Shown here piece after piece: positions 16,418 to 58,922 of a DNA stretch of 64,000 bases. Positions within the stretch are counted from its first letter, which is position 1; each line of letters starts with the position of its first letter. Origin of the DNA: Spirochaetota bacterium (GTDB lineage Bacteria; Spirochaetota; Spirochaetia; Sphaerochaetales; Sphaerochaetaceae); the NCBI GenBank assembly GCA_918298275.1, contig CAKJZO010000007.1, positions 6,612 to 70,611 of the forward strand, given 5' to 3'. The notes under the pieces were generated by a model that worked only from the letters and a program-made list of their open reading frames with translations, did no database searches and was not told the DNA's origin. The translations under genes and the position numbers were made by a program.

Positions 16418-16443
16418 GTCTGTATTCTAAATCATTATTGCCT

Positions 16444-16483: not shown

Positions 16484-16502
16484 GGATGGATTCCAAATCG
16501 CG

Positions 16503-18023: not shown

Positions 18024-18057
18024 AGCTTATCCTCCTTATGATAAAACTCTCTGAGTG

Positions 18058-22610: not shown

Positions 22611-22628
22611 TTTGGGAGGAATGATAGG

Positions 22629-23534: not shown

Positions 23535-23538
23535 GTAT

Positions 23539-39536: not shown

Positions 39537-39606
39537 ATTAGCCTCCTATGCGTGTTATCTTTGATAATTTTACCATATTAACTAAATAAAACAATAAAAA
39601 ATGATG

Positions 39607-39635
39607 TGCAGATTAACCGATACCCTTAATCTGCA
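39607..39635. promoter_or_regulatory. Perfect 10-bp inverted repeat in the divergent promoter region upstream of nagB
   Basis: TGCAGATTAA-N9-TTAATCTGCA, lying 9 bp upstream of a TATAAT hexamer (39645-39650). Confidence 0.35.
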
Positions 39636-39695
39636 TTTCAGTGTTATAATCAAACACGATTCGATGCCGGGTGTGCATCATGGAGGAGAATTGAC

Positions 39696-41889: not shown

Positions 41890-41969
41890 TTGCCTGATAA
41901 TATAGCATAAAGAACAATTCGTTGACTACTGACATATGGGGATGCAAGATTAAATAAAGGAGAAGCAAA

Positions 41970-43238
41970 ATGGTACTAACATTCCCTTACGGACGGGAGA
42001 CACGATCTCTGGACGTGCAGGACAATCGGATTGATGGGATTCTTGTTTCGGGCATACATGATTACAGGCCGGAGCAATCCCCGGAAAAGCTCGTTGCCGA
42101 TGCCTTGGCAAACCCAATAGGAAGTCCGAGGCTGAGCGAACTGGCAAAAGACCGAAAAAACATTGTTCTCATCTGCAGCGACCATACACGTCCGGTCCCC
42201 AGCAAGGTCATAGTCCCCCAGATGCTAAGGGAAATGCGCAGGGGAAATCCCGAAGCACAGATAACGATTCTTATCAGCACCGGATGCCACAGACCGACGA
42301 CACGGGAGGAACTTGAGTCCAAGTTCGGCAAGGATATCGTCCGGGAAGAAAGAATCGTAGTCCATGATTGCGACAAGTCCCCGATGGTAAGTCTGGGGAT
42401 GCTTCCGAGCGGTGGAGAACTGATAGTCAACGCTCTTGTGGCACAGGCGGACCTTGTCTGCTCCGAAGGCTTCATCGAGCCGCACTTCTTCGCAGGGTTC
42501 TCCGGTGGACGTAAATCCATTCTTCCCGGTGTTGCCTCCAGAAAAACCGTCATGGCCAATCACTGTTCCGAATTCATTGCAAGCGAGTACTCGAGGACCG
42601 GAATACTGAAAGGGAACCCCATTCACAAGGATATGATATGGGCTGCCAGACAGGCCAAACTCCGTTTCGTGTGCAACGTCGTGATCGATTCCGATAAGAA
42701 AGCCATCTTTGCAGTTGCCGGGGATCTGGAGAAAGCCCATGAGAAGGGTTGCAGTTTCCTGTCAGCTCTCTGCGGAGCCAAGCGCAGGATAGCAGATATA
42801 GTGATAACCACGAACGGCGGTTATCCGCTCGACCAGAACATATATCAGTCCGTCAAGGGTATGACAGCTGCAGAAGCAACCGTCCGAGACGGAGGTGTGA
42901 TAATAATGCTGGCAGCATGCAATGACGGCCATGGCGGGCAGTCGTTCTTCGACCAGCTTGCCGGAGCTTCGGATCTGAACTTTGCGATGAATGAGATTCT
43001 CAGCAGGGGCAGGGACCGGACCATACCGGATCAGTGGGAGGCGCAGATTCTCATAAGAATCCTGTTGAAGGCAAAGGTCATCCTCGTGTCGGAAGCCCCC
43101 GATGATATGGTCAGGGCAATGCATATGATTCCTTCTCACAGTCTGCAGCAGGCTCTTGAACAGGCAGAAGCGATAATCGGAAACAAAGAAGCTACAGTAA
43201 CAGCTATACCGGATGGAGTCTCCGTGATGGTTGTATAA
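41970..43238 (+). CDS. larA: LarA-family nickel-pincer-dependent 2-hydroxyacid racemase/epimerase
   Basis: 422 aa with LarA blocks CSDHTRPVPS, PHFFAGFSGGRKSILPG (including the cofactor Lys region) and GNPIHKD. Confidence 0.8.
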   Translation: MVLTFPYGRETRSLDVQDNRIDGILVSGIHDYRPEQSPEKLVADALANPIGSPRLSELAKDRKNIVLICSDHTRPVPSKVIVPQMLREMRRGNPEAQITILISTGCHRPTTREELESKFGKDIVREERIVVHDCDKSPMVSLGMLPSGGELIVNALVAQADLVCSEGFIEPHFFAGFSGGRKSILPGVASRKTVMANHCSEFIASEYSRTGILKGNPIHKDMIWAARQAKLRFVCNVVIDSDKKAIFAVAGDLEKAHEKGCSFLSALCGAKRRIADIVITTNGGYPLDQNIYQSVKGMTAAEATVRDGGVIIMLAACNDGHGGQSFFDQLAGASDLNFAMNEILSRGRDRTIPDQWEAQILIRILLKAKVILVSEAPDDMVRAMHMIPSHSLQQALEQAEAIIGNKEATVTAIPDGVSVMVV

Positions 43239-43255
43239 AAACAGGTAAAAAAGAT

Positions 43256-43284
43256 TTGACATCCATCTTCCGGTGTTTTAGTCT
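43256..43284 (+). promoter_or_regulatory. Candidate sigma70-type promoter of the GntR-led operon
   Basis: TTGACA (43256-43261), a 17-bp spacer, then TAGTCT (43279-43284). Confidence 0.35.
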
Positions 43285-43308
43285 GACATTAGAAGTTGTC
43301 AGACAACT
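43281..43308. promoter_or_regulatory. Candidate GntR/FadR-type operator
   Basis: A 15-bp perfect palindrome AGTTGTCaGACAACT (43294-43308) and an inverted repeat GTCTGACA/TGTCAGAC (43281-43288/43297-43304). The GT-N-AC core is typical of GntR-family sites. It lies about 30 bp upstream of the regulator gene. Confidence 0.45.
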
Positions 43309-43339
43309 GACAAATAGCATCGGCTTAATGAACTGAGTA

Positions 43340-44035
43340 ATGAGTATGGAACTTCATAAGGTTATATGCCCTGAGCAGCTTGAGAGAAGAGATCTGAAGA
43401 CAGATGTAGTTGTCATGCAGCTCAAAAAGTACATCATTGACAATAATCTTACTGCTGGTGAAAAACTTCCGACTGAGGCTGAACTGTCATCTGCCCTTCA
43501 TGTTTCCCGTTCTGCAATAAGGGAAGCCATGAAAGCACTGGAAAGCCTGGGATTGATAATGACTGTTCAGGGGAAGGGGCGGTTCATAAAAGAGTTCGAT
43601 TACAGAAAACTCATTGACGCAATGACATATAACGTTCAAGTTGGGTACAAGGATTTTCAGGAAGTACTTCAGGTCAGAAAAGCTTTGGAATATTTCTTTA
43701 TTCCTGAGGCTATGAAAAATATGACAAAGTCAGATTGCTGTGAGCTGGATCAGGTGGTAGACCAGATGGAGATTGACGTGAATGAAGGCAAGTCTTACAG
43801 CTCCATTGCAGAGACTCATGCAAAATTCCATCAGATACTGTACAGGAACTTGGGAAACAAACTGCTTGATGCGCTGATTTCAATGTTCGCTTTTTTCCAG
43901 AAGATGTTGGATAAGACAATTGACAATAAAGAGCTGTTCATCCAAGAACACAGAAGCATGATAGAAAGTCTCAGACTGGGAGACGTTGATGGAATGAGGG
44001 AGAAAATATTCAGGCATTTCCATGATTTTGCATGA
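43340..44035 (+). CDS. GntR-family transcriptional regulator, FadR/FCD subfamily
   Basis: 231 aa with the N-terminal winged HTH (LPTEAELSSALHVSRSAIREAMKALESLGLI) and a C-terminal all-helical FCD-like domain. Confidence 0.85.
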   Translation: MSMELHKVICPEQLERRDLKTDVVVMQLKKYIIDNNLTAGEKLPTEAELSSALHVSRSAIREAMKALESLGLIMTVQGKGRFIKEFDYRKLIDAMTYNVQVGYKDFQEVLQVRKALEYFFIPEAMKNMTKSDCCELDQVVDQMEIDVNEGKSYSSIAETHAKFHQILYRNLGNKLLDALISMFAFFQKMLDKTIDNKELFIQEHRSMIESLRLGDVDGMREKIFRHFHDFA

Positions 44036-44042
44036 GGGGACT

Positions 44043-44801
44043 ATGAGAAAGGAACAGGTTCAGTATTACAACACGGTTTTGGGGATCTATGACAAGATTC
44101 TTAACAATAATCCTCAACTTGAGGATGCCGCGCGGGTAATTGCACAGAGCATTGCCAGAGGTCAGTTGATTCATGTTATAGGAACCGGCGGACATTCCAA
44201 CATGGCTGCGGAAGAGCTTTTGTGGAGGGCCGGAGGTCTTGCTCCCATCAATGCCATTCTTGATGCAGGAACCAACCTCATTCATGGGGCAAAAAGATCC
44301 AATATAATCGAGAGGACAGAGGGCTATACAGAAAAGGTCTTCAATGTATACAACGTCGGGAAAACTCCGAACGAAGTTATCATCATTGCCAATGCCTATG
44401 GAATCAATGCAATGACAATTGATGCGGTGATTGAAGCTAGAAAACGCGGTATGACATCGATAGCCATAACTTCCACGGGGTTTGCTGATTCTGTTCCGAA
44501 AGGAGTTCCCTCAAGGCACTCGTCCGGAATGAACCTCTATCAGGAGGCAGACTACTTCATCAACAACTTCATGCCATACGGGGATGCTGTTGTTGATATA
44601 GATGGATGTAATCAGAAGACCGCACCCACATCCACGCTATGCAATACATTCGCCATCAATCTTCTGATGTTGACTGCCGTCGCAATTCTGAAGGAGATGG
44701 GGATTGATCCTCCTCTTTGGACAAGCGCAAACCTGCCGGACGGAGACAGAAAGAACAAAGCCCTTGAGGAGCAGTATGCCTCAAGAGTCAAACATCTTTG
44801 A
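44043..44801 (+). CDS. Single-SIS-domain protein, UPF0309-like (uncharacterised family), paralogue 1
   Basis: The ATG at 44043 gives MRKEQVQYYNTV, which aligns residue for residue with paralogue 2 (MTEAVEQYYNSV). It has the SIS block HVIGTGGHSNMAAEELLWRAGGL and the C-terminal ...RVKHL. Confidence 0.7.
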   Translation: MRKEQVQYYNTVLGIYDKILNNNPQLEDAARVIAQSIARGQLIHVIGTGGHSNMAAEELLWRAGGLAPINAILDAGTNLIHGAKRSNIIERTEGYTEKVFNVYNVGKTPNEVIIIANAYGINAMTIDAVIEARKRGMTSIAITSTGFADSVPKGVPSRHSSGMNLYQEADYFINNFMPYGDAVVDIDGCNQKTAPTSTLCNTFAINLLMLTAVAILKEMGIDPPLWTSANLPDGDRKNKALEEQYASRVKHL

Positions 44802-44812
44802 GAGGGTGACAA

Positions 44813-45586
44813 ATGATAGAATTCAGAGTTGACAAGCTTTCTGTCTTAGTAGCGGACAACAACCAGGAGATGGGAAGAACAGCGGCTGAGGCAATTGCCG
44901 CGGATTTGAGAAAACTGGCTCGTGAAAAGGAAGAAATCAGGGTCATGTTCGCTGCGGCACCATCTCAGAACACCATGTTTGAGGCGCTTTGCGGCCTGAA
45001 GGATATTCCCTGGGAGAAGATAGTTGCATTTCATATGGATGAATACATAGGAATCGGCATTGATAGGCCCCAGTCTTTCAGGGCTTTCCTTAAAAATGCC
45101 ATATTCGGCAAAAAGCCTTTCAAGGCTGTAAACCTGATAGAAGGTGATGCAAAAGACATTGAAAGCACCATCAGCCGCTATGAGGGGATGTTGCGTGAGA
45201 AACCTATGGACATGATTGTGCTAGGAATCGGAGAGAACGGACACATCGCCTTCAATGATCCCGCTGTAGCTGATTTCAATGACGAGCATCTGGTGAAAAT
45301 TGTGGAACTCGACGATATCTGCAGGCAGCAACAGGTCAATGACGGATGCTTTGCAACTATTGATGATGTCCCAAAACAAGCTCTTACCGTTACAATTCCC
45401 GCATTTATGACGGCAGGAGTCCTTCATTGTGTTGTTCCAAATGTCCGTAAAGCAAATGCTGTGAAAAATGCCCTTCATGGGCCTGTGGGAGAAAAGTGCC
45501 CCGCATCAATACTTAGGACGCATGATAATGCGCACCTGTATCTGGATGCTGGAAGCGCCTCTCTTCTCTGTAATCGTATGGAATAA
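44813..45586 (+). CDS. Glucosamine-6-phosphate deaminase-like protein, paralogue of 39696..40430
   Basis: 257 aa with the motifs FAAAPSQ, FHMDEY, GIGENGHIAFNDP and CRQQQVNDGCFATIDDVP. The last aligns with CRMQQVGEGWFATEDDVP in the other copy. Confidence 0.75.
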   Translation: MIEFRVDKLSVLVADNNQEMGRTAAEAIAADLRKLAREKEEIRVMFAAAPSQNTMFEALCGLKDIPWEKIVAFHMDEYIGIGIDRPQSFRAFLKNAIFGKKPFKAVNLIEGDAKDIESTISRYEGMLREKPMDMIVLGIGENGHIAFNDPAVADFNDEHLVKIVELDDICRQQQVNDGCFATIDDVPKQALTVTIPAFMTAGVLHCVVPNVRKANAVKNALHGPVGEKCPASILRTHDNAHLYLDAGSASLLCNRME

Positions 45587-45692
45587 AAAAGTGGCGGAGA
45601 GCTTCTTTGAGGAGTATGATTTAAGAGGTTGTCCGCCAACCGATTTTAGAAAACATGCCGCGTTGCGGCTAAAAACATCAGGAGGATAAAAG

Positions 45693-47207
45693 ATGAAGAA
45701 AATTCTCGTTGTTCTGCTTCTTCTGACAGCTATGGTCTCTGTGTTCGCACAGGGAGCTTCAGAACAGAAGGCAACAGTTGCCAAGGATTCAGTGACACTG
45801 GTAATCTCCGGAAACCCGTATCGTTTCTACGCTCTTTCAGCAAAGGGCTGCGGTGGAGATGATAACCTGGTTCTTGCCAACGTCTACGATTGTCTGCTCT
45901 GTCTTGAGCCGGACGGAACTCTCTCACCTGCATTAGCAGAGAGCTATGACCTTTCAGCTGATGGTCTGACATACACATTCCATCTGCGCAAGGGTGTCAA
46001 GTTCCATGATGGTTCGGAAATGACGGCAGAAGATGTCAAATTCACTTTGGACAAGGGTTCTGCAGGTCCTCTCGGAGCAGCTCTGTTCATCAACTTCGAT
46101 CACTGTGACATTATCGATGAATACACAGTGGCAGTTACACTTTCAAGCCCGTTTGCTGCATTCCCGTATGGAATCGCCAGCCGTCTGGGCGGAATCTGCA
46201 GCAAGGCCTATTATGAGAAGGTCGGTGATGACGGATATATGGAGAACCCAATTGGAACCGGTGCATATAAGCTCGTCGAGTATGTCAACGGTGACCATAT
46301 TGTCCTTGAGGCATTTGAGGATCACTGGAGAGGCGCACCGGCAATCAAGACCGCAAGGATTGTCATGGTCGCTGATACCAATACAAAGATCCTCGGACTC
46401 CAGAACGGTGATTACGATGTCATGAAGGATCCTGGAATCGAGCAGTGCACACGTTTCGAGTCCGTCAAGGGAATCGGCACCGCAGTCGGTGATTCAACCG
46501 CCCGTATCACAGTCAATATCAACGCATGGAGCGGCATCGGAACAGACATCAATTTCAGAAAGGCTCTCCAGTATGCAATCAACAAGGATGACATTAACAA
46601 GGCCGTTAACAATGGCGCTGCAAAGATCCTGACCGTTGATATCTGTCCGATGTACGGTGGATATCCCGACCATATCCAGGGTGTCGAGTATAATGCTGAA
46701 AAGGCAAAGGAGTATCTGGCAAAGTCCTCATACAAGGGCGAGCCGTGGTCAATCACTTGCAAAGCTGGCACAACCTATGAGACAGCAGCAAAGGTCATGC
46801 AGGCTCAGCTGCTTGAAGTCGGAATCAACTGTGAGGTTGAAGCTGTTGACAACATGACATATGAGGAGAAGGGAAAGAAGAGAAACTTCGACTGCAGAAT
46901 AGTTGAAGAGGCCTCATCTCTTATCGATGCAGACTCAATCGCAACACAGTTCACTCCATCAAGATTCGACGAGGCAGTCTGGTATCCGCGTGCAATGGAA
47001 ATCTATGAGATGGCTCAGAAGGGAAGATCTCTCCAGGGTCAGGAGAGAAAGAACCTCTATGGTGATATTGCTCAGATCCTCATTGACGAGGCTTACACGA
47101 TTCCTCTCTATAACGGTGTCAACACAGTTGCATATAACTCAGATCTCCAGGGTGTTAAGGCACACTGCCTGAGCTACTATGTATTCCGCTATTGGTCATG
47201 GAAGTAA
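45693..47207 (+). CDS. ABC transporter substrate-binding protein, family 5 (Dpp/Opp type)
   Basis: 504 aa with the signal peptide MKKILVVLLLLTAMVSVFAQG and family 5 blocks (YTFHLRKGVKFHDGSEMTAEDVKFT). Confidence 0.85.
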   Translation: MKKILVVLLLLTAMVSVFAQGASEQKATVAKDSVTLVISGNPYRFYALSAKGCGGDDNLVLANVYDCLLCLEPDGTLSPALAESYDLSADGLTYTFHLRKGVKFHDGSEMTAEDVKFTLDKGSAGPLGAALFINFDHCDIIDEYTVAVTLSSPFAAFPYGIASRLGGICSKAYYEKVGDDGYMENPIGTGAYKLVEYVNGDHIVLEAFEDHWRGAPAIKTARIVMVADTNTKILGLQNGDYDVMKDPGIEQCTRFESVKGIGTAVGDSTARITVNINAWSGIGTDINFRKALQYAINKDDINKAVNNGAAKILTVDICPMYGGYPDHIQGVEYNAEKAKEYLAKSSYKGEPWSITCKAGTTYETAAKVMQAQLLEVGINCEVEAVDNMTYEEKGKKRNFDCRIVEEASSLIDADSIATQFTPSRFDEAVWYPRAMEIYEMAQKGRSLQGQERKNLYGDIAQILIDEAYTIPLYNGVNTVAYNSDLQGVKAHCLSYYVFRYWSWK

Positions 47208-47259
47208 GTGATCAATCTGGTGGTCATTATGATCGCCGATGATTATCTTTTCACGTTCC

Positions 47260-47291
47260 CATGTGGCGTTGAGACTTCCCAACGCCACATG
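47260..47291 (+). other. Intercistronic stem-loop after the SBP gene
   Basis: A perfect 12-bp stem CATGTGGCGTTG/CAACGCCACATG with an 8-nt loop and no T-tract. It sits in the 125-bp gap before the permease gene. Confidence 0.6.
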
Positions 47292-47332
47292 CGTTTAATC
47301 ATCCACTTTTCCATTCTAAATGGAGGGAGCCT

Positions 47333-48262
47333 GTGAACTGGTTAAAATATGCCTTGAAACGGATTCTGATGCTTATTCCTGTCATCATTTCCGTTACATT
47401 CATTCTGTTTCTGATATTATCACTTGCGCCAGGCGATGTGGCGCGAATGGTCCTCGGTCAGGATGCCACGGAAGAGCAAGTCGCACAACTCAATCATGAG
47501 ATGGGTCTGGACAGACCATTGTTAATCAGATATCTGCGTTATATGCGGGATGCCCTGCGTCTGGATTTCGGTCGGTCATGGACCGGAAATTTCGATGTTC
47601 TTGCAGAGTTCTCACATAGATTACCTTATACATTACTTGTCTCATTCCTTGCGATTATATTCGCAACGGGAGTGGGAATTCCTCTGGGAATAGCCTCTGC
47701 CATCAAGCAATATAGCCTGCTAGACTATGGCAGCACTTTCATGGTCATGCTTCTTTTCTCCATGCCTGCATTCTGGCTTGGAACCATGTGTCAACTGCTG
47801 TTCTGTCTGACACTGCACTGGCTTCCTGTCTCAGGAATCACCAACTGGAAGAACTTCATCCTTCCACCGTTGATTCTCGGGGCAAATACACTTGCATCCA
47901 TGATAAGGATGAGCCGAACAAGCATGCTTGACGTCATCCGCATGGATTATATCCGCACAGCCCGCGCAAAGGGTGGTTCAAGAAGATATGTCACAAGACA
48001 CCATGCCATACGAAACAGCCTTATTCCTGTTGTCACACAGATTGGAATCAGTTTTGCCGGGACAATCGGCGGTGCTGTTGTTACCGAGAATATATTCGCC
48101 ATTCCGGGTATCGGAACACTCCTTATAAATGCGGTAAAGAGCCGTGATGTTCCGGTTGTCATGGGAACGGTAATATTCATCACCATAATAGTCGGTGTGA
48201 TCAACCTGATTGTTGATCTGATCTGCGCGCTGGTCGATCCCAGAATCGATCTCGCATCCTAA
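47333..48262 (+). CDS. Dpp/Opp-type ABC permease (DppB-like)
   Basis: 309 aa with a GTG start after GGAGGGA. It has the N-terminal ILKRILMLIPVIISVTFILF and the EAA region DYIRTARAKG. Confidence 0.85.
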   Translation: MNWLKYALKRILMLIPVIISVTFILFLILSLAPGDVARMVLGQDATEEQVAQLNHEMGLDRPLLIRYLRYMRDALRLDFGRSWTGNFDVLAEFSHRLPYTLLVSFLAIIFATGVGIPLGIASAIKQYSLLDYGSTFMVMLLFSMPAFWLGTMCQLLFCLTLHWLPVSGITNWKNFILPPLILGANTLASMIRMSRTSMLDVIRMDYIRTARAKGGSRRYVTRHHAIRNSLIPVVTQIGISFAGTIGGAVVTENIFAIPGIGTLLINAVKSRDVPVVMGTVIFITIIVGVINLIVDLICALVDPRIDLAS

Positions 48263-48273
48263 GGAGGGGGACG

Positions 48274-49158
48274 ATGGCTATATTCAAGAAAAAAACGAAG
48301 AAACCCCTTTCGGAATACAGCACAGGAGAACTGATCCTGTTCAGGTTCAAGAAGAATAAGCTTGCTATGATAGGTGTTGCGATGTTCATGTTCGTGACCA
48401 TCATGATCCTCATTGCTCCGCTCATCAGGCCATACTCAATGGTCATCAAGCAGGACATTGTCCACAGACTCAATCCGCCCAGCAAGGAACATATTTTCGG
48501 AACCGACGAGCTTGGAAGAGACCTTCTTGCAAGAATCCTCTACGGAGGAAGGATATCGCTTTTCTGCAGCCTGGCGATAATCGGAATAGCTTTCGTGACA
48601 GGTGCGATAATCGGAGGAACCGCTGGTTTCTTCGGCGGTAAGGTCGATACCATCCTGATGAGAATCGTAGACATGCTCATGTCCGTTCCGTCCGCTCTGC
48701 TTGCAATGGCAATAATAACCGCTTTGGGTAACGGAGTCTGGAAACTTGTCCTTGCTCTCTCGATAGGCCAAATTGCACGATTTGCGAGAATGGTCAGGTC
48801 TTCCGTTCTTACCCTGCGTAATCGTGAGTACATAGAGGCTGCAAAGTGCTTCGGATCCAGTTCCTGGAGAATTATCATGAAGCATATACTTCCGAACGGA
48901 ATAGGCCCGATCATCGTTTCCGCAACCCTGACGTTGGGTGCAGTCATCCTCAGTATCTCATCAATGGGATATCTCGGCTTGGGCGTTGCTTCGCCTACAC
49001 CTGAGTGGGGAACCATCATTTCTGAGAATAAGGTCAATATCCAGTACTTCCCGTATCTTGGAGTGATTCCCGGAATATGCATCATGCTCACCGTTATGTC
49101 CGTCAACTTCATAGGTGATGGCCTAAGGGATGCTTTCGATCCGAAGTCAAAGAGGTAA
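48274..49158 (+). CDS. Dpp/Opp-type ABC permease (DppC-like)
   Basis: 294 aa with HIFGTDELGRDLLARILYGGRISL and the EAA region EYIEAAKCFGSS. Confidence 0.85.
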   Translation: MAIFKKKTKKPLSEYSTGELILFRFKKNKLAMIGVAMFMFVTIMILIAPLIRPYSMVIKQDIVHRLNPPSKEHIFGTDELGRDLLARILYGGRISLFCSLAIIGIAFVTGAIIGGTAGFFGGKVDTILMRIVDMLMSVPSALLAMAIITALGNGVWKLVLALSIGQIARFARMVRSSVLTLRNREYIEAAKCFGSSSWRIIMKHILPNGIGPIIVSATLTLGAVILSISSMGYLGLGVASPTPEWGTIISENKVNIQYFPYLGVIPGICIMLTVMSVNFIGDGLRDAFDPKSKR

Positions 49159-49171
49159 AGGAGGAGACGTC

Positions 49172-50167
49172 GTGGAAAACGAAGACAGGTCGGTTCTTGA
49201 GATAAAGGACCTGTATGTCCAGTACAATACTGATGATGCTGTGGTCCATGCCGTAAACGGACTTAATCTGACCCTGAAAGAGGGTGAAAAGCTCGGTCTG
49301 GTAGGAGAGACCGGAGCAGGCAAAACCACGCTTGCTCTCTCGATTCTGAAGCTTCTGCCGGACAAGGTCGGAGAGATACACAGCGGTTCCATCGTTTACA
49401 AGGGTGAAGATCTTGTTGACAAGCCTGAAAGCTACATGCTCGGGCTCAGAGGTCACAGGATATCCATGATATTCCAGGATCCCATGACCAGCCTCAATCC
49501 GACAAAAAATGTCGGAGATCAGGTGCTTGAGGTCATCAACCTTCATTTCCCCGAATTATCCTCAGCTGAAAAGGCGGCTAAAGTCGATGAGATGTTCCGA
49601 CTGGTCGGAATTCCGGCCTCCAGAAAAGGAGAGTTCCCCCACCAGTTCTCCGGCGGAATGAAGCAGAGGATTGTCATTGCAATGGCTTTGATTGCGGAGC
49701 CTGAGCTTCTGCTGGCGGATGAACCGACTACTGCCCTGGATGTTACGATTCAAGCCCAGATTCTGGAACTGATGAGAAAGCTCAAGGAGGAGTTCAACTC
49801 CGCTGTTGTGCTGATAACGCATGATCTGGGAGTTGTGGCTGAATTCTGTGACACCGTGTCGGTTATATATTCGGGAAGAGTTGTTGAGCATGGAACAGTT
49901 GAGCAGATTTTCGAGGGTGAAGACAACCATCCGTATACAAAGGGACTCATACACTGTATTCCGTCCCTTTCCGACACATCAAAAAGACTCCAGCCCATTC
50001 CCGGACGCATGCCGGATCCAAGAAATCTTCCGGAGGGCTGTTGCTTTGCTGACAGATGCCCGTTCTGCAGGGAGAAATGCAAGACCTCAATGCCCGAACC
50101 TCATGAAAAAGACGGACATATGATTCTCTGTCATCTCTATGACCCCAAGGAGGACGGAAATGCCTGA
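49172..50167 (+). CDS. Dpp/Opp-type ABC ATPase (DppD-like)
   Basis: A GTG at 49172 follows GGAGGAG. It has Walker A GETGAGKTT, signature FSGGMKQR, Walker B LLLADEP and the C-terminal oligopeptide-type extension. Confidence 0.85.
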   Translation: MENEDRSVLEIKDLYVQYNTDDAVVHAVNGLNLTLKEGEKLGLVGETGAGKTTLALSILKLLPDKVGEIHSGSIVYKGEDLVDKPESYMLGLRGHRISMIFQDPMTSLNPTKNVGDQVLEVINLHFPELSSAEKAAKVDEMFRLVGIPASRKGEFPHQFSGGMKQRIVIAMALIAEPELLLADEPTTALDVTIQAQILELMRKLKEEFNSAVVLITHDLGVVAEFCDTVSVIYSGRVVEHGTVEQIFEGEDNHPYTKGLIHCIPSLSDTSKRLQPIPGRMPDPRNLPEGCCFADRCPFCREKCKTSMPEPHEKDGHMILCHLYDPKEDGNA

Positions 50168-51131: not shown

Positions 51132-51868
51132 TGGCCCATTTAAGATGTGATTTCCGCTCGGAGATGCTTCAGATGGGAACCTCAATGACAGTGTTTCTTC
51201 CGGAGTCGATCAATACGGAAGATGCAGACGTAGTGTATCTGCTCCATGGCCTTGAAGACAACTGCACCGGATGGACCAGATACACCAGCGTTGAGAGATA
51301 TGCAAGGGCATACAATCTGGTCGTAGTGATTCCGGAGGTTCAGAGAAGCTTCTACACCGATATGGAAGCAGGACTCAGGTATTTCAGCTTTGTTCATGAT
51401 GAACTTCCTGCAATCTGCAGGAGGATGTTCCATATTACCGGAAAACCTGAGAAAACCTATATCATGGGACTATCGATGGGAGGCTATGGAACTCTCAAGT
51501 GCATGCTTCGCAGCCCTTCACGATATGCGGGATGTGCCGCTTTTTCCTCATTGACCGATATTCAGAATTCTGTCGATAATGCCGGCGAACCCCGACGCTC
51601 GGAATACAGGGCCATTTTCGGAGAAAGCCTTAAGGTCGGCAAGAAAGATGATCTTTTTGCTCTGCTGAAAAGCAAAAGAAGCATAAGGTTTCCACGCATC
51701 TACATAGCGTGCGGAGATCAGGATTCTCATCTTGAAGAAAACCAACGGTTTGTTGATGCCCTTGACTCCAAGGGGATTCCATGTACATGGGAACATTTCG
51801 AAGGGGCCCATAACTGGGTTTTCTGGGATAAGGTAATCTGCAAGGCATTTGATTTGTTTTTTGCCTGA
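51131..51868 (+). CDS. Esterase (esterase D / tributyrin-esterase-like alpha/beta hydrolase)
   Basis: The ATG at 51131 overlaps the upstream stop (TGATG). It has the nucleophile elbow GLSMGGYG and an early VVYLLHGL block. Confidence 0.75.
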   Translation: MAHLRCDFRSEMLQMGTSMTVFLPESINTEDADVVYLLHGLEDNCTGWTRYTSVERYARAYNLVVVIPEVQRSFYTDMEAGLRYFSFVHDELPAICRRMFHITGKPEKTYIMGLSMGGYGTLKCMLRSPSRYAGCAAFSSLTDIQNSVDNAGEPRRSEYRAIFGESLKVGKKDDLFALLKSKRSIRFPRIYIACGDQDSHLEENQRFVDALDSKGIPCTWEHFEGAHNWVFWDKVICKAFDLFFA

Positions 51869-51882
51869 CAGGAGGTGGCTAT

Positions 51883-52779
51883 ATGATTGATCTGAGAGGT
51901 ATGATGACGGAATCTCGGAATCCCGAATCCATGAACCTTGACGAAATGACAGCCTTAGAGATTGTCACTGTGATGAATTCTGAGGATATAAAGGTTCCTC
52001 AGGCTATCAAAAGCCAGCTTCCCATGATTGCACAGGCTGTTGACTGCTGTGTTTCGGGAATAAAGGAAGGAGGCAGGATTATCTACATCGGAGCCGGGAC
52101 AAGCGGCAGATTGGGGATTGTCGATGCCTCAGAATGTCCTCCGACATTCGGAGTTTCGCATGATCTTGTAGTAGGCCTGATGGCCGGTGGCATGAGAGCC
52201 ATGTCCCATGCCGTTGAAGGTGCCGAGGACAGCCGAGAGCTCTGCGTCGAGGATCTGAAGAATCTTGCTCTCAGGAAATCAGACACCGTTGTCGGTCTTG
52301 CAGCGAGTGGAAGAACCCCTTATGTTCTTGGTGGTCTTGAGTATGCAAACAGCATAGGTTGCAGAACAGTCTCCATCGCATGTAATACAGACTCAGCAAT
52401 CGGAAAGGAAGCAAAAGTGAAAATAGAGGTTCCAGTAGGCCCGGAGGTCCTTACCGGATCAACAAGGCTCAAGGCAGGAACGGCTCAAAAACTTGTTCTC
52501 AACATGATAACTACAGCTACAATGGTAAGACTCGGCAAATGCTACCAGAACTTGATGGTGGACATGGTACAGTCGAATGCAAAGCTGAAGATCCGCGCCC
52601 AGAATATGGTCATGGATGCCACCGGCGTCGACAGGGATGAAGCCATAGAAATACTTGAGAAAGCTCAGGGAAGCGTAAAGACCGCCATAGTGATGATCCT
52701 TGCCTCCTGTTCCTGTGAAGAGGCCCTGAACAGACTGTCCGCATCTGAAGGGCATGTACGACAGGCGGTGATGCAATGA
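51883..52779 (+). CDS. murQ: N-acetylmuramic acid 6-phosphate etherase
   Basis: 298 aa, nearly collinear with E. coli MurQ across four blocks:
- GAGTSGRLGIVDASECPPTFGV
- AVEGAEDS
- GLAASGRTPYV
- TGSTRLKAGTAQKLVLNM. Confidence 0.95.
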   Translation: MIDLRGMMTESRNPESMNLDEMTALEIVTVMNSEDIKVPQAIKSQLPMIAQAVDCCVSGIKEGGRIIYIGAGTSGRLGIVDASECPPTFGVSHDLVVGLMAGGMRAMSHAVEGAEDSRELCVEDLKNLALRKSDTVVGLAASGRTPYVLGGLEYANSIGCRTVSIACNTDSAIGKEAKVKIEVPVGPEVLTGSTRLKAGTAQKLVLNMITTATMVRLGKCYQNLMVDMVQSNAKLKIRAQNMVMDATGVDRDEAIEILEKAQGSVKTAIVMILASCSCEEALNRLSASEGHVRQAVMQ

Positions 52780-53651
52780 GAATAATAGCCGGTGTGGATG
52801 GCGGAGGAACCAAGACAACCCTCATCTGCAGATGTCTGGAAGATAATTCCGAACAAGTATTCAGATACGGCCCCTTCAACATAAATGCAATAGGGGAGCA
52901 GTCTTTCAGGGCTCTGCTTTCACGCATGGTCGATGATATTGTAAAAACAGGTGAATGCGAGGCCCTCTGCATAGGTGCCGCAGGCGTGAGCAATTCTCGC
53001 ATGAAAGATATTGTCTCGGATGTTCTTGGTTCTTCCCCGATTTCCAGATGGACTCTTGTCGGAGATGACGTAATAGCCATGGAAGGTGCATTGGATGGAG
53101 GTCCCGGTATTATCGTTATTTCGGGAACAGGCTCTATTGTTCTGGGGCGGGATGTTGAAGGCAACAAGACCCGCATGGGTGGCTGGGGTCATCTGATAGG
53201 AGATGAAGGAAGCGGATACGGGATTGCCAGAGACGCTTTCAAGGCTCTTTCAATGGTGTTTGACGGCGTAGGAGAAGATACATCTCTGATGAGGGATTTT
53301 TGTATCGGGACACGGACAGATCTGATTTCAAAACTTTACAGCGGAGAAAAAGGCGATGTTGCCGCCTATGCCGTGATAGTGGAGAAGGCGGCGGAAGCTG
53401 GGGACAAGGTTGCCCTAGGTATACTGGAGGACAATGCGGTCAAGCTTGCAGAAACTGTCTTTGATGTTTATTTGAGTCTGAATCTTGGAAGAACCAACGT
53501 AGCTTTTATCGGCGGTCAGATTAATCACGATACTCTTTTTAGACGGATGCTTTCTTCTGCGATTATCAGTCTTTCAAATGATATGGTCTGCATTGATCCG
53601 ATTCATGATGCTGCAGAAGGGGCTGTCATGATTGCCGGAGGAATGATCTGA
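52776..53651 (+). CDS. BadF/BadG/BcrA/BcrD-type sugar kinase (GlcNAc/MurNAc kinase, MurK-like)
   Basis: 291 aa with the N-terminal AGVDGGGTKT and later ISGTGS and IGDEGSGY ATPase motifs. It has an ATGA overlap with murQ. Confidence 0.75.
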   Translation: MRIIAGVDGGGTKTTLICRCLEDNSEQVFRYGPFNINAIGEQSFRALLSRMVDDIVKTGECEALCIGAAGVSNSRMKDIVSDVLGSSPISRWTLVGDDVIAMEGALDGGPGIIVISGTGSIVLGRDVEGNKTRMGGWGHLIGDEGSGYGIARDAFKALSMVFDGVGEDTSLMRDFCIGTRTDLISKLYSGEKGDVAAYAVIVEKAAEAGDKVALGILEDNAVKLAETVFDVYLSLNLGRTNVAFIGGQINHDTLFRRMLSSAIISLSNDMVCIDPIHDAAEGAVMIAGGMI

Positions 53652-54745
53652 TGGAGCGGGAGAAGGGGAAAAGTGTTTTCTCTACTTTGGGAGCGATTTT
53701 CTCTCCGCTGATTCCTGCATTCCTCGCTGCCGGAATGTGCACTGGAATCGCATCGCTGATTTCGGGGTTCAGTTCAAGTGCAGTTGTTTTACCTATAGCC
53801 AAATTACTTAAGTTGGTAAGTGCTGCCTTTACTACTTATATCTCGGCATGGATCGGAGTATCTGCGGCAAGGATATTCGGTGCGACTCCGATATTGGGAG
53901 GACTACTGGGAATGGCGTCGCTTCTGGGCGGTATAGGAGATATCGCGGAGATAGTCCATCTGGAAGGTTTTCTGCATCCAGGAAGCGGAGGGGCAATCGC
54001 GGTTGTCGCAGGGGTCTTCTTTCTCAGCAGAATAGAGAAGTTCCTTGCAGCCAGACTGCCCGGATGGGTTAATCAGGTTTTTTCTCCATTCATATCGGTT
54101 CTGGCTGTGCTTGTCCCATACGTATTTATTGTTATGCCATTATTGGGCGTGCTGACAGAAGCTGTGAGCAGCGGCATTCTCTTTCTCTGTTCCAATGACA
54201 ACCTGGCTGTGAAGATAATTACAGGCTATATCTGCGCAGCAATATTCCTGCCAGGACAATTACTGGGACTTCAACCGGTCTTCCAATCCATCTATATAAT
54301 CCAAATGGAGACAATAGGGGTGATTTCAATTGCACCGATACTCACTATGGCCGGTGCAGCGCAGGTAGGTGCGGCTTTCTCTGTAATGCTGAAAAGCCGC
54401 AATGTGAACAATACGAAACTCTGCGGAGTCTGTGCAGGGGGAATACTGCCAGGGATGCTGGGGATCGGAAACGCCTTGCTTTACGGGATGTCGGTTCCGT
54501 ATCCCAAGGTGCTTCTGACCACATGCATAGGCGCGGGGTTCGCGGGATCATTCATAGCAATCGCGCAGGTTTATGCCACGGGTTACGGGTCCAGTGGACT
54601 TCTTGCAATCCCGTTGATGACAGCAGGAGCAGGCAGCCCTGTCTGGAACATAGCGATGTATACTACAGGTCTGGCAATAGGATTTGTTGCCGGTTTTATT
54701 CTGACTGCTTTGATTGTAAACAAAAACCTATTCAAGGAGGATTGA
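53651..54745 (+). CDS. PTS EIIC-like permease lacking EIIB/EIIA domains (MurT-like candidate)
   Basis: 364 aa and polytopic. The region GMLGIGNALLYGMSVPYPK aligns with the glucose-family EIIC GITEP(A)xxG motif but reads GIGN at 54461-54472. It has a TGATG overlap with the kinase gene. Confidence 0.6.
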   Translation: MEREKGKSVFSTLGAIFSPLIPAFLAAGMCTGIASLISGFSSSAVVLPIAKLLKLVSAAFTTYISAWIGVSAARIFGATPILGGLLGMASLLGGIGDIAEIVHLEGFLHPGSGGAIAVVAGVFFLSRIEKFLAARLPGWVNQVFSPFISVLAVLVPYVFIVMPLLGVLTEAVSSGILFLCSNDNLAVKIITGYICAAIFLPGQLLGLQPVFQSIYIIQMETIGVISIAPILTMAGAAQVGAAFSVMLKSRNVNNTKLCGVCAGGILPGMLGIGNALLYGMSVPYPKVLLTTCIGAGFAGSFIAIAQVYATGYGSSGLLAIPLMTAGAGSPVWNIAMYTTGLAIGFVAGFILTALIVNKNLFKED

Positions 54746-54746
54746 T

Positions 54747-55496
54747 ATGACTGAAGCTGTTGAACAGTATTACAACTCGGTTTCGGAACTGATTACATCT
54801 ATCTTCAAGGAACAAATCGGCGCTATAGAGAAGGCTGCTACACTTGTTGCCGATGCCGTAGAGGCTGGAAATGTCTTCCATGTCTTCGGTTCGGGAGGAC
54901 ACTCCAATATGGTGGCAACCGAGATGTGCCATCGCGCGGGAAATCTTATTCCATGCAACGTGATATTGGATCCGGGACTAGGTTGTGAACACGGCGCGAC
55001 AAGATGGTGTGAGAAGATTCCCGGTTATGGCCCAAATCTCCTTAGGTATTACAAAGTCAAGAGAGGTGATGTGCTGTTGCAGTTCAATGCCTATGGAATT
55101 AACCAGTGTTCGATTGATACTGTTCTTGAATGCAAGAGACTTGGGGTTACTGTTGTGGCAATTACTTCCCCCAAGCTGAGCCATTCCATTCCGGAGGATT
55201 TCGGAGGCAGACATCCCAGCAAGAAGAACCTGTGTGATCTTGCAGATGTTGTGATTGACAGCTACACCCCTTATGGTGAGGCTGTAGTATCATTGGAAGG
55301 GTATCCGTTCAAGGTTTCCCCGACATCAACGATAGCAAACATATTTATAGTGAATGCAATCAATGCAAAATGCTGTCAGATTCTTGCAGAACGTGGTGTG
55401 AAGCCTCCTGTATGGATAAGCGGCAATATCCCCGGTGGCACGGAGTCCAATCAGGCAGGAATGGACAAGTATTTCGGGATTCTCAGGCACCTGTGA
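54747..55496 (+). CDS. Single-SIS-domain protein, UPF0309-like, paralogue 2
   Basis: 249 aa with HVFGSGGHSNMVATEMCHRAGNL and the C-terminal ...ILRHL. It is collinear with 44043..44801 over its whole length. Confidence 0.7.
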   Translation: MTEAVEQYYNSVSELITSIFKEQIGAIEKAATLVADAVEAGNVFHVFGSGGHSNMVATEMCHRAGNLIPCNVILDPGLGCEHGATRWCEKIPGYGPNLLRYYKVKRGDVLLQFNAYGINQCSIDTVLECKRLGVTVVAITSPKLSHSIPEDFGGRHPSKKNLCDLADVVIDSYTPYGEAVVSLEGYPFKVSPTSTIANIFIVNAINAKCCQILAERGVKPPVWISGNIPGGTESNQAGMDKYFGILRHL

Positions 55497-55510
55497 TATC
55501 GGAGGAACGA

Positions 55511-56299
55511 ATGAATATACTTGTATGCGTCAAACAGGTTCCTGGCTCGAGCAACGTCAAGGTCGATGAGAAAACAGGACTGTTGATACGGCCCAAAAAG
55601 GGCAACAAACTCAATCCATATGACCTTTATGCCATAGAGGCCGCATTGGTCTTGAAAGAACAGTACGGCGGCAGCGTCAAGGTCCTTACCATGGGTCCCC
55701 CTCAGGCAAGGGACGTTCTCGAGGAATGCCTGTGGATGGGCTGCGATGAGGCATATCTGATTACTGACCGGGCTTTCGGAGGTGCTGATGTCCTGGCTAC
55801 CAGCTACACCATCAGCCAGGGAATCCGCAAGGCAGGTGATATCGATCTGATAATCTGCGGAAAACAGACAACGGATGGAGACACCGCCCAGGTCGGAGCC
55901 GAGACTGCAGAACATCTGGGAATCCCTCATCTGTCAAATGTCACCGGAATATTGGAAGTGGATGAAGGCTCTGTTCTCGTGGAAGCCAATCAGGAGAAGA
56001 TGATAGTCAAGCAGAGGATCAAGCTTCCCTGTCTCATCTGCATGGACAGCGAGGTGAACACCCCAAGACTTCCTTCCTACAGGCGAAGGAAAACAACTGA
56101 AGAGACGCTGGTGCATTCGCTCACGCTTGCAGACCTGGAAGACAGGAATCCGGAACACTATGGACTGAAAGGCTCCCCTACGCAGGTACAGAAAGTATTC
56201 CCTCCGGAGAAAAGCTCCTCCAGAATACTTGAGAACGGCAGTTCGGAAGAGCTTGCGGATAAACTCAACCGGCTTCTGTCCGACAGGAAATTCATCTAG
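55511..56299 (+). CDS. etfB: Electron transfer flavoprotein beta subunit
   Basis: The ATG at 55511 follows GGAGGA. The N-terminus MNILVCVKQVPGSS and the block ICGKQTTDGDTAQVG are both typical of EtfB. Confidence 0.88.
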   Translation: MNILVCVKQVPGSSNVKVDEKTGLLIRPKKGNKLNPYDLYAIEAALVLKEQYGGSVKVLTMGPPQARDVLEECLWMGCDEAYLITDRAFGGADVLATSYTISQGIRKAGDIDLIICGKQTTDGDTAQVGAETAEHLGIPHLSNVTGILEVDEGSVLVEANQEKMIVKQRIKLPCLICMDSEVNTPRLPSYRRRKTTEETLVHSLTLADLEDRNPEHYGLKGSPTQVQKVFPPEKSSSRILENGSSEELADKLNRLLSDRKFI

Positions 56300-56308
56300 G
56301 AGGGCAGT

Positions 56309-57502
56309 ATGGGACTGGTTATACACAAGGAAAAGATAAGCAGAGAAACAGGTGAGAAACTCAAGAGCCTCTGTCCTTTCGGAGCCATCAGCTATACAGA
56401 GAAAGAGGGCCTTTCGATAGGGATGGGCTGCAAACTCTGCAAGCTGTGCGTGAAAAAATCAGACGGAGTGATAACGTTCGAGGAGGAGCTTTCCCCCAGA
56501 GTGGACAAGAGCCTGTGGAAAGGGATACTTGTCTTCTGCGAGCACTTTCACGGCAAGATCCATAATGTGACTTTCGAGCTCCTCGGGAAAGCAAGGGAGC
56601 TTGCGGCGGTCACGGGTCAGAATGTCATGGCACTCATGATAGGGTCCGATATCACTGACAAAGCCAAGGAGCTGTATTGCTATGGTGCCGATGATGTCTA
56701 TGTCTATGACAATCCCGGACTCAGGGATTTCCTGATCGAGCCCTACACCAACGTATTCGAATCCTTCATAAGACAGATCAGACCTTCTTCGATCCTTGTA
56801 GGTGCAACGAATGTCGGACGTTCCCTGGCTCCCAGGGTTGCAGCGCGACTCAGGACCGGGCTTACCGCCGACTGCACATCCCTGGAAATGACGGAGGATA
56901 CCGATCTTGTCCAGATAAGACCTGCGTTCGGCGGCAATATCATGGCCCGTATCATGACTCCGAACCACAGACCCCAGTTCTGCACGGTGAGGTATAAGAT
57001 TTTCTCAAAACCCGAGAAGACGGACTGCGACAGGGAACCCATTTCAATGGAAGTGACAGACCGGATGCTGGTCACCAACGCCCGGATCGTGGACATCGAG
57101 CTGAAGCCGGAAGACGTCGATATTTCGGAAGCCGAGGTAATAGTCCAGTGCGGACGTGGAGTCAAGAGCAAGTCAGACCTTGCAATGGTGCAGGAGCTGG
57201 CGAATCTTCTCGGGGCGAGGATGGCCTGCACAAGGCCTCTTGTAGAGAACAACTGGTTCGATGCCAAGCATCAGATCGGCCTCTCCGGAAGGACAGTCAA
57301 ACCCAAGCTCCTGATCTGCATCGGAGTCTCCGGAGCAGTACAAACGGTAGCCGGAATGAAAGGGAGCGACTTGATTATTGCAATAAACAGTGATCCACAG
57401 GCTCCTATTTTCGATGTAGCTCATTATGGATATGTGGGTGACCTCTATGAGATTGTTCCCAAGCTGATAGAGAAGATCAAGACAACCAGAGGGGAGGTGT
57501 GA
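56309..57502 (+). CDS. etfA: Electron transfer flavoprotein alpha subunit with an N-terminal ferredoxin-like [4Fe-4S] domain
   Basis: 397 aa. The first ~60 aa carry CP...CKLCKLC (four Cys). The C-terminal FAD block is [30 protein letters not shown]. Confidence 0.85.
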
Positions 57503-57503
57503 C

Positions 57504-58892
57504 ATGTTCAACGAAGTAAACAAAGAAGACCTTCTTGCCTTGCAGAAGATGCTCCCCGGAAGAGTTTTCGACGGCAGACAGATAAACGAGGATTACTATC
57601 ATGACGAACTCGGCACCGCCTTCGGTGTTCCCGATGTCCTGGTGAAGGTCCTCTCTACAAAAGAGGTTTCCGATGTCATGGGATATGCCTGCAGCAGATC
57701 CATTCCCGTAGTTGTCAGAGGGTCGGGAACAGGCCTTGTAGGAGGGGCGGTCGCAACACATGGAGGAATAATGCTGGATACCTCCATGATGAAGAAAGTC
57801 CTTGAATTGGATGAGAACAACCTTACGGTGACGGTACAGACCGGAATTCTCCTCATGGAGCTTGCAGCCTATTGCGATGAGAGAGGCTTCCAGTACTGTC
57901 CCGATCCGGGAGAGAAGAGCGCAACCATAGGCGGAAACATCTCGACGAATGCCGGCGGCATGAGAGCCATGAAATACGGAGTGACTAGGGATGCGGTGAG
58001 AGCCATCACTGTTGTCCTTGCCTCAGGTGAGATAATGAAGTTCGGCAGCAAGGTCGTAAAGAATTCCAGCGGCTATGATCTCAAGGACCTCATCATCGGA
58101 AGCGAAGGGACATTGGGGGTCGTCACCGAAGCCACGCTGAAGATAATCCCCAAACCGGAATACGCCATCAGCATACTTGTTCCGTTCAGAACCATGAAGG
58201 ATGCCATATCCACAGTTCCGAAGATCATCAGGGCTCAGGTCACACCGGTAGCCACCGAGTACATGAGTCAGGACGTCATTCTGTTTGCGGAAGAATATCT
58301 GGGCAAGAAGTTCCCGACCCATGCTTCCGATGCCTATCTTCTCCTTACCTTCGACGGCAACACGAGAGAGGCCGTCATGCATGACATGGAGACGATTGCA
58401 GACCTCTGTCTTGAGAACGATGCCATCGACGTGTTCATGATAGATACGGAGGAACGCTCTGCCAGCGTCTGGTCCGCCAGAAGCGCATTCCTTGAGGCAA
58501 TCAAGGGCTCCACGGACCAGATGGACGAGTGTGATGTCGTCGTTCCGAGAAGCAGGGTTGCGGACTTCATCCTCTTTACCCATGAAGTCGCAAAGAACGT
58601 CGGACTCAGGATCCCGAGCTTCGGGCATGCCGGAGACGGGAACCTGCATATCTACCTCTGTCGTGATGGCCTTGATGACAAGCAGTGGGAAAGCCGCAAG
58701 GAAAAGGCTTTCTCCATGATGTATGAGAAATCCAAGGAAATGGGCGGCCTTGTCAGCGGAGAACACGGTATCGGCCTGGACAAGAAGAAGTACCTTCTGG
58801 ACATGTTGGGGGAGCGTCAGCTTGAACTGATGAGAGGCATAAAGAGCGTATTCGACCCCAAGGGCATACTGAATCCCGGAAAGGTGATCTGA
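57504..58892 (+). CDS. FAD-linked oxidase, GlcD/LctD-type lactate dehydrogenase
   Basis: 462 aa with an FAD-binding PCMH domain ([15 protein letters not shown]) and a C-terminal GEHGIG...DP.GILNPGK block. It starts 1 nt after the etfA stop. Confidence 0.8.
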
Positions 58893-58922
58893 ACCTTCCG
58901 ATAGTATTACTGAAGTTGGGAA

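Follow-up and report, generated by a model that had tools for sequence, protein, structure and literature searches.

For a fermenter without a respiratory chain, an electron-confurcating dehydrogenase is the known way of oxidizing lactate with NAD+. LctBCD is such an enzyme, coupling lactate oxidation to NAD+ reduction with the use of reduced ferredoxin, and LarA is a racemase. In Acetobacterium woodii, the Ldh-EtfAB complex (LctBCD; PDB 7QH2) has been characterized as an electron-confurcating lactate dehydrogenase (PMC9232219), and D-lactate is preferred by an LctD homolog (PMC12630350). D-lactate is also released by MurQ, the enzyme that splits N-acetylmuramic acid 6-phosphate (MurNAc-6-P) into N-acetylglucosamine 6-phosphate (GlcNAc-6-P) and D-lactate (PMC5790795); in an engineered C. 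glutamicum strain with MurQ, D-lactate builds up unless a D-lactate dehydrogenase takes it away (PMC6165865). Here we describe a stretch of 64,000 nucleotides from a Spirochaetota contig (CAKJZO010000007.1; "the window" hereafter) in which 17 plus-strand genes, from 41970 to 58892, bring larA and lctBCD (etfB-etfA-ldh) together with murQ and other amino-sugar genes. We put the probability at roughly three in four that this array was put together from two independent units, namely a larA-lctBCD operon and an amino-sugar/MurNAc island.

Compared with A. woodii lctABCDEF, the window has etfB, etfA and ldh in the same B-C-D order and has LarA in the same operon; it differs in having neither an LctA-type regulator nor the LctE permease. 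Furthermore, larA follows lctBCD in A. woodii whereas in the window it precedes them, with a foreign island of 12.3 kb between larA and lctB. With regard to the MurNAc genes, T. forsythia murTKQ and C. acetobutylicum MurK likewise combine MurQ with a cytoplasmic kinase of the BcrAD/BadFG family that replaces phosphorylation by the phosphotransferase system (PMC5790795). The transporters in the window, an EIIC-only permease and a Dpp-type ATP-binding cassette (ABC) importer, are unlike either T. forsythia MurT, which falls within the sodium symporter superfamily, or the complete EIIBC permease MurP of E. coli murQP (PMC5790795). Fusobacterium nucleatum ldh-etf-bcd is a further relative, as it likewise has an LctD-type, D-lactate-preferring dehydrogenase linked to Etf in a non-canonical gene context (PMC12630350). 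However, the F. nucleatum Etf is of the canonical, non-bifurcating kind and delivers its electrons to Bcd (PMC12630350), whereas EtfB of the window, in the segment CGKQTTDGDTAQVG, matches the bifurcating A. woodii LctB. All components of the array belong to known families and no new enzymology is implied; it is the arrangement that is undescribed in the literature searched. A preliminary description of this DNA had already supposed that such a coupling was undescribed, and we found no paper linking MurQ to Etf-LDH in that literature.

One site with three states

The island consists of 13 genes (43239-55496, approximately 12.3 kb) placed precisely between the stop codon of larA and the ribosome-binding site (RBS) of etfB. 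Contigs carrying the same site share collinear flanks, with an ABC transporter, nagB, a Na/Ca exchanger and larA on the left, and etfB-etfA-ldh, PIN7, an iron-type alcohol dehydrogenase (Fe-ADH), two 407-aa genes and an M20 peptidase on the right. What varies is the position between larA and etfB, for which we distinguish three states, or haplotypes. In state A (L112-L115, L005 and GCA_016648615.1) this position is empty, the larA-etfB spacer being 20 bp long in L112-L115 and L005. In state C (L107-L110) it holds ten genes, dppABCDF-esterase-murQ-murK-EIIC-SIS2, and lacks gntR, SIS1 and the nagB-like gene. State B, that of the window, is made up of the state C set plus gntR-SIS1-nagB-like at 43245-45577, giving 13 genes. 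Public contigs carry the window's LDH protein, as an exact sequence match, in one of two settings: EIIC-SIS2-etfB-etfA-ldh (L001-L004) or larA-etfB-etfA-ldh (L005, GCA_016648615.1). In BLAST alignments L005 matches the window at 42172-43232 and then resumes at 55507, and the breakpoints fall at 43232-43244, 45578 and 55507. A larA gene directly upstream of etfB was seen in L005, L009 and L112-L115.

These comparisons bear on two proposals of the preliminary description, that all lct components except the permease are present and that MurNAc genes sit at the position of the permease. Neither held up. The GntR gene is an island gene and not LctA (see below), and the nearest relatives, which are rumen Spirochaetales, have larA-etfB-etfA-ldh with a 20-bp spacer and no permease. 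With no permease to displace in these relatives, what we see is insertion of the island into the larA-etfB spacer, not replacement. A lactate permease was likewise found beside none of the spirochaete lctBCD copies in L008-L012, L016 and L112-L115, and no lactate-permease Pfam match was obtained among the window open reading frames (ORFs) scanned.

Nucleotide identity to the window is uneven along the site. For state A it is 85-89% in the left flank (including larA), approximately 99% in lctBCD and 95-96% further right; for state C it is 83-87% in the left flank and 93.9% in the island. Identity is approximately 99% in the lctBCD segment itself (window 55507-59159 versus L113:8663-12315 and L005) and 82-92% in parts of the PIN7 region. 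Judged from the alignments, this peak suggests that lineages have recently exchanged the lctBCD segment by recombination.

Base composition sets the island apart from its surroundings. The 13 island genes have a mean GC content at third codon positions (GC3) of 0.50, as opposed to 0.61 in larA with lctBCD and 0.63 across the 28 other genes of the window (Mann-Whitney p ~1e-6). Over whole genes, GC is 0.41-0.50 in the 13 inner genes, compared with 0.52-0.53 in larA, etfB, etfA and ldh. The island is compositionally foreign. A GC mosaic had been suspected earlier from spot values; it is real (GC3 0.50 versus 0.61-0.63) but weaker than those values implied.

The same gene set also exists on its own. 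On contigs carrying SIS2 homologs we found it free-standing and in permuted order in at least six contexts (L097, L098/L099, L102, L103, L105 and L106), and two of the SIS2 homologs from free-standing islands carry the source names Sphaerochaetaceae or Spirochaetales. Shared with the window are the ABC importer with a family-5 solute-binding protein (SBP), the PF00756 esterase, MurQ, the BadF-type kinase, the EIIC-only permease, two SIS_2 proteins, the NagB-like protein and the GntR/FCD regulator, at identities of 76-91% for DppA-F, 80-86% for SIS2 and 64-69% for MurQ. The free-standing islands differ in that they often have an extra aldose epimerase and in having no flanking larA, etf or ldh; Etf/LDH genes never adjoin any of the six. 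The lone LarA homolog near one of them (L105, 47% identical) is approximately 8 kb off, past a CRISPR-Cas locus.

Two side observations concern these contigs. L105:1-9400 and L106:584-8199 are closely related islands that stand beside different CRISPR-Cas loci (one of the Cas9 type, the other type I-C-like), and in L105 a second GntR/FCD gene lies with the LarA homolog beyond the Cas genes.

Reach and age of the murQ-etf linkage

A scan of species-representative genomes centered on LDH returned nine loci. L008 (Spirochaetales RGIG8110, a different GTDB species, with an LDH that is 88% identical) has dpp...SIS2-etfB-etfA-ldh with a 15-bp junction; L009 (RUG12683, LDH 86% identical) has larA-etfB directly; and in L010, L012 and L016 (LDH 77-86%) lctBCD is preceded by unrelated genes. 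The Firmicute and Fusobacteria loci have gntR-lctBCD. A metagenome scan centered on MurQ gave 80 loci, 65 of which were ordinary murQ-murP pairs, and neither etfA nor etfB was found near murQ at any of the other 79 (0/79). With this count and with six free-standing islands that have no etf, the murQ-etf linkage is confined to one rumen lineage. A survey for this linkage, as proposed in the preliminary description, therefore shows that it is not general but is shared by two species within the lineage. The island is missing in related strains, and the murQ-lctBCD link is thus optional.

Between the window and L008 the synonymous divergence (dS) is 0.8-3, with a ratio of nonsynonymous to synonymous divergence (dN/dS) of 0.02-0.10, island and lct genes alike. 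The fusion is old and has been maintained, and both halves are under purifying selection.

At one of the other MurQ loci (L062:6072-12392) a GlcD (570 bits, just over the TIGR00387 cut-off) and a GlcF/LdhH-like Fe-S subunit are encoded divergently from a HutC-type gntR-murQ-murP. Here MurQ may have become linked to a D-2-hydroxyacid dehydrogenase independently, or the pairing may be chance (1/79 loci).

The lactate-oxidation unit

The identities and order of the 17 genes, as first described, were borne out by the ORF listing and by Pfam and NCBIfam profiles (Table 1). The assignment of the last three genes to the lct type also stood, the chains of 7QH2 being their best matches, and on these grounds etfB-etfA-ldh are clear orthologs of A. 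woodii LctB/C/D. The residues named for LctD include metal ligands (His377, His384, Glu422), the catalytic His423 and the substrate-binding Arg328 (PMC9232219); LctD of the window keeps all ten (L80, R328, L332, E344, D346, H377, H384, Y386, E422, H423). EtfA of the window aligns to 7QH2_A from residue 2 and keeps the four cysteines (CPF...C..C..C). For EtfB the best match is LctB, the bifurcating Etfs 4KPU_B and 6FAH_B come next, and the segment given above is identical to LctB; by these matches EtfB is of the bifurcating type. The maturation genes larBCE were not found within the window.

Elsewhere in the window (6632-8922) lies an aldehyde:ferredoxin oxidoreductase gene (AFOR_N and AFOR_C domains), preceded by that of a polyferredoxin-like 4Fe-4S protein. 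This locus is one possible source or sink of reduced ferredoxin for a confurcating Ldh-EtfAB.

Table 1. Features of the 17-gene cluster and of its spacers, with window coordinates
Feature	Position	Strand or location	Basis
Small 131-aa ORF	41494-41889	-	no Pfam or NCBIfam match; GC3 0.42
larA, nickel-pincer lactate racemase	41970-43238	+	NF033504 equivalog, 614 bits vs cut-off 460
Perfect 8+8 palindrome GTCTGACA-N8-TGTCAGAC	43281-43304	larA-gntR spacer	sole window match at <=3 mismatches
GntR/FCD regulator, FadR-type	43340-44035	+	Pfam GntR+FCD
SIS1, SIS_2/UPF0309 (PRK02947, NagS-family) protein 1	44022 or 44043-44801	+	NF002805, 223 bits
NagB-like Glucosamine_iso protein	44813-45586	+	PF01182; TIGR00502 128 bits, under cut-off 237
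DppA, family-5 SBP of Dpp/Opp-type ABC importer	45693-47207	+	PF00496 (SBP_bac_5)
15-bp inverted repeat	47260-47291	dppA-dppB gap	93% complementary, 2-nt loop
Permeases DppB, DppC and ATPases DppD, DppF	47333-51131	+	Pfam, NCBIfam; RBS-supported starts 49172, 50160
Esterase	51131-51868	+	PF00756; top PDB matches are esterases 4RGY, 2UZ0
murQ, MurNAc-6-P etherase	51883-52779	+	TIGR00274 402.6 bits vs cut-off 302; PDB 4S12 334 bits
MurK-like BadF/BcrAD-family (BcrAD_BadFG) sugar kinase	52776-53651	+	PF01869; PDB 8ZO3 137 bits, full length
EIIC-only permease, without EIIB or EIIA domain	53651-54745	+	PF02378
SIS2, SIS_2/UPF0309 (NagS-family) protein 2, final island gene	54747-55496	+	NF002805 (PRK02947), 229 bits
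etfB (lctB)	55511-56299	+	top PDB match 7QH2_B, 301 bits; runner-up 199
etfA (lctC), N-terminal ferredoxin-like 4-Cys domain	56309-57502	+	top PDB match 7QH2_A, 508 bits
ldh (lctD), VAO-family GlcD-like FAD D-2-hydroxyacid (lactate) dehydrogenase	57504-58892	+	7QH2_C 622 bits, 60% identity

The MurNAc route and its companions

MurQ and the MurK-like kinase together support a predicted MurNAc-6-P route. The top PDB match of the kinase, 8ZO3, is a MurNAc/GlcNAc kinase, and the sugar specificity of the kinase in the window is not readable from its sequence. The top NCBIfam match of the EIIC-only permease is MurP IIBC, over residues 116-474 only and with 141 bits where the cut-off is 516. In the PDB, the binding protein DppA comes closest to the AccA proteins, agrocinopine binders whose ligands are sugar phosphodiesters. 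Similarity in the PDB links the esterase to small carbohydrate and tributyrin esterases, and we infer that it is possibly a sugar O-deacetylase that removes O-acetyl groups from MurNAc.

Both SIS_2 proteins belong to the same family as NagS (SCO4393; PDB 9EOL), a Streptomyces UPF0309 protein with GlcNAc-6-P dehydratase activity (PMC12680351), a comparison that rests on alignment scores (94-110 bits) and not on percent identity. SIS1, which matches 3CVJ and 9EOL in the PDB, keeps the NagS-essential residues H53, R64, E94 and D179; SIS2 keeps H53, R64 and E94 and has a glutamate at position D179. The window differs from NagS in that two SIS_2 paralogs always travel with a NagB-like gene, and the activity is putative: NagS homologs of Clostridium, Paenibacillus and Acidothermus, at 26-36% identity, were inactive as dehydratases (PMC12680351). 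A literature search on UPF0309 returned no match.

The trio of the NagB-like protein and two NagS-family SIS_2 paralogs (window 44043-45586 and 54747-55496) is conserved as a unit. An Oscillospiraceae locus (L100, 8454-10747) has the same trio together with a TRAP transporter, a GNAT protein, an aldose epimerase and a NagA-like amidohydrolase, and this recurrence makes the trio a portable sub-module. It is thus a conserved and uncharacterized set found in spirochaete and Oscillospiraceae amino-sugar loci alike.

Likely transcription across the junction

Gene spacing was measured from RBS-supported starts. From 49172 to 58892 the genes overlap or are separated by at most 14 bp, as had been reported: in order, there is an 8-nt overlap, a 1-nt overlap, a 14-bp gap, a 4-nt overlap (ATGA) and a 1-nt overlap, followed by gaps of 1 bp (EIIC-SIS2), 14 bp (SIS2-etfB), 9 bp (etfB-etfA) and 1 bp (etfA-ldh). 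Only three gaps in the cluster exceed 100 bp, those of larA-gntR (101 bp), nagB-like-dppA (106 bp) and dppA-dppB (125 bp). The etfB RBS GGAGGAACGA (GGAGGAA..ATG), retained from the uninterrupted operon, comes straight after the SIS2 stop codon. A terminator-like hairpin with a T-run was found in none of the plus-strand intergenic gaps of the cluster, and Rfam gave no match between 41000 and 59500 at E up to 0.1, hence no riboswitch or known RNA element.

With only 14-15 bp parting SIS2 from etfB and with no terminator seen, co-transcription of murQ with etf/ldh is likely. The preliminary description had gone further in inferring a single transcript; the tight junctions argue for the murQ-etf/ldh part of this claim. 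In lineages where etfB comes first in the operon there are -10 boxes just upstream of it, whereas the 14-15 bp spacer of island-bearing lineages contains none. Free-standing L097 and L105 have a strong promoter-like site ahead of dppA, and none was detected at that place in the window.

The GntR protein of the window shares 41-43% identity with its counterparts in islands L098, L103 and L105. With the lct-linked GntR encoded ahead of etfB in Firmicute locus L014, which was compared instead of A. woodii LctA itself, it shares only 26%. The window's gntR is absent from haplotypes A and C. By identity and distribution GntR is assigned to the island and not to lct, and the idea that it is LctA was rejected on both counts.

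The spacer between larA and gntR holds a TTGACA at 43256-43261 and a perfect palindrome (Table 1). The palindrome was considered as an intrinsic terminator and rejected, as its hairpin is no more stable than those of shuffled sequence (z = -1.07) and no U-run follows; it is a candidate operator for the island GntR. The inverted repeat between dppA and dppB may be a stabilizer or attenuator of a kind that is frequent after SBP genes.

Proposed mechanism and rival explanations

A plausible scenario is that insertion of the island into the larA-etfB spacer cut the direct link of lctBCD to the larA promoter. The lctBCD genes would then most likely be read through from island or larA promoters alongside murQ, and read-through would mean co-expression with murQ. 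In a fermentative anaerobe, D-lactate released by MurQ could in this way be converted to pyruvate via LctBCD. Any such coupling would be an opportunistic, lineage-specific gain from the insertion, not a designed replacement of a permease. Coupling of D-lactate oxidation to MurQ is biochemically coherent, unproven and lineage-restricted, and we hold it tentatively, at a little short of even odds. We are similarly guarded about whether the array works as a natural operon that wires the catabolism of peptidoglycan sugar to flavin-based electron confurcation, so that a rumen spirochaete living strictly by fermentation would recover the lactyl carbon of MurNAc with the use of reduced ferredoxin; that this is so seems to us possible, though somewhat doubtful.

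Several observations weigh against a composite formed by insertion and given this function: (i) integrase or transposase domains were found neither in nor beside the island, which leaves the insertion mechanism unexplained, and searches for flanking direct or inverted repeats gave only short matches at chance level; (ii) exact-sequence look-ups of the window GntR, LarA and P0121 gave no match, and the larA-gntR junction was seen in the window alone; (iii) haplotype A may represent secondary loss or a recombinant instead of the ancestral state, the direction of change being ambiguous because the empty haplotype A has approximately 99% identity in lctBCD while the more distant L008 has the island, which nests the lctBCD of state A among island carriers; (iv) a promoter inside SIS2 may drive lctBCD, and a consensus scan of the cluster, at background both for promoter-like sites (21 versus 19.8 expected) and for terminator-like sites (17 versus 15.1 expected), was uninformative for locating promoters; (v) the preference of the window LctD for D-lactate is extrapolated from its homologs; and (vi) any substrates assigned to the importer, the EIIC-only permease, the esterase or the two SIS proteins are putative. 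Carriage of the island by a plasmid was also looked for, and the best coverage was 7%, by single genes only.

Three other explanations have to be weighed against a composite of two units. The one we reject is that the array is a chimera from metagenomic mis-assembly of two loci. The assembly behind the window is indeed of the metagenome type (the NCBI contig is 71 kb long), and its larA-gntR junction is found in no other assembly. However, the SIS2-etfB junction is present in L001-L004, L008, L107 and L108, from differing samples and assemblers, four assemblies contain haplotype C's larA-dppA junction, and both flanks are collinear with empty-site contigs. Since independent assemblies share the right junction and also the left junction of haplotype C, an assembly artefact is excluded for practical purposes, and we give it almost no weight. 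A different possibility is that of a dedicated system, in which one evolved unit imports MurNAc and oxidizes the D-lactate made internally, the uptake genes having replaced the lct permease. The logic of product and substrate speaks for it, since MurQ releases D-lactate and LctD-type enzymes oxidize it (PMC5790795, PMC12630350), as do the tight junctions and the fact that the junction has been kept in two species at dS >1 under purifying selection. One may also reason, although we have not computed it, that a random landing in the genome's one D-lactate-oxidizing operon is a priori unlikely, and the unrelated L062 pairs GlcD and a GlcF-like subunit with gntR-murQ-murP. Nevertheless, the site is empty in close strains whose lctBCD is near-identical; no permease lies beside any spirochaete lctBCD copy examined, so that nothing was replaced; the island stands alone on six other contigs; GntR belongs with the island and is not LctA; etf genes occur at 0/79 other MurQ loci; and D-lactate derived from MurQ needs no LarA. 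Taken together, we regard a dedicated system as improbable.

It is also conceivable that the juxtaposition is neutral, the island having landed in, or been brought by recombination into, a permissive spacer where its adjacency to lctBCD is metabolically meaningless, while lctBCD serves external lactate through a permease encoded elsewhere and either tolerates read-through or uses an internal promoter. Presence/absence polymorphism at the site is what one would expect in that case, and the mosaic of identities (85-89% on the left, 99% in lctBCD, 95-96% on the right) suggests a recombination hot spot. The presence of a second low-GC3 glycan island in the window indicates that such acquisitions are common here, and the retention of LarA points to the use of external L- and D-lactate. 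What makes us think this rather unlikely is that orientation and the etfB RBS have been preserved, that a gap of 14-15 bp leaves no intergenic room for an independent promoter, and that the arrangement has outlasted synonymous saturation with both halves intact. In addition, D-lactate is an unavoidable product of MurQ that a fermenter must either oxidize or excrete. We favor a composite of two units, with coupling as a possible gain.

The value of the locus lies in its arrangement, which is a clean and datable case of a catabolic island inside another operon. MurQ, of which D-lactate is a by-product, would become co-transcribed with Ldh-EtfAB, the sole plausible anaerobic route for oxidizing that D-lactate. 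Because rumen populations contain the empty, the 10-gene and the 13-gene state side by side, the effect of the fusion on lctBCD expression can be tested in existing metatranscriptomes. If the coupling is real, the role of the confurcating lactate dehydrogenase would extend from external lactate to D-lactate made internally, the disposal of the lactyl moiety of MurNAc by fermenters would be explained, and the three-state site would serve as a natural experiment on operon fusion under selection.

Neighboring amino-sugar and glycan genes

Upstream of larA the window encodes a protein of the GlcNAc 2-epimerase family (34244-35512) and a second NagB-like protein (39696-40430), with an ABC importer between them. 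These genes imply that this part of the chromosome was an amino-sugar neighborhood even before the island came in. Haplotype C has in addition a NagA-like amidohydrolase gene (L107:6578-7762) between the SBP gene and the nagB upstream of larA; no NagA was found at the matching position of the window (39537-39695) or elsewhere in the 64 kb.

The minus-strand ORF next to larA (Table 1) is 94% identical in amino-acid sequence to L107:9525-9902 and is present in states B and C only, and window 41507-41917 has no counterpart in the haplotype A contig L112. This ORF may represent another small insertion, one accompanying the island.

A second block of low GC3 (mean 0.50) spans 14294-25296 and encodes an AraC-type regulator, a family-1 SBP with DUF3502, two ABC permeases, a GH2 enzyme and a 1137-aa GH59 protein. 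It is probably another acquired glycan-utilization island.

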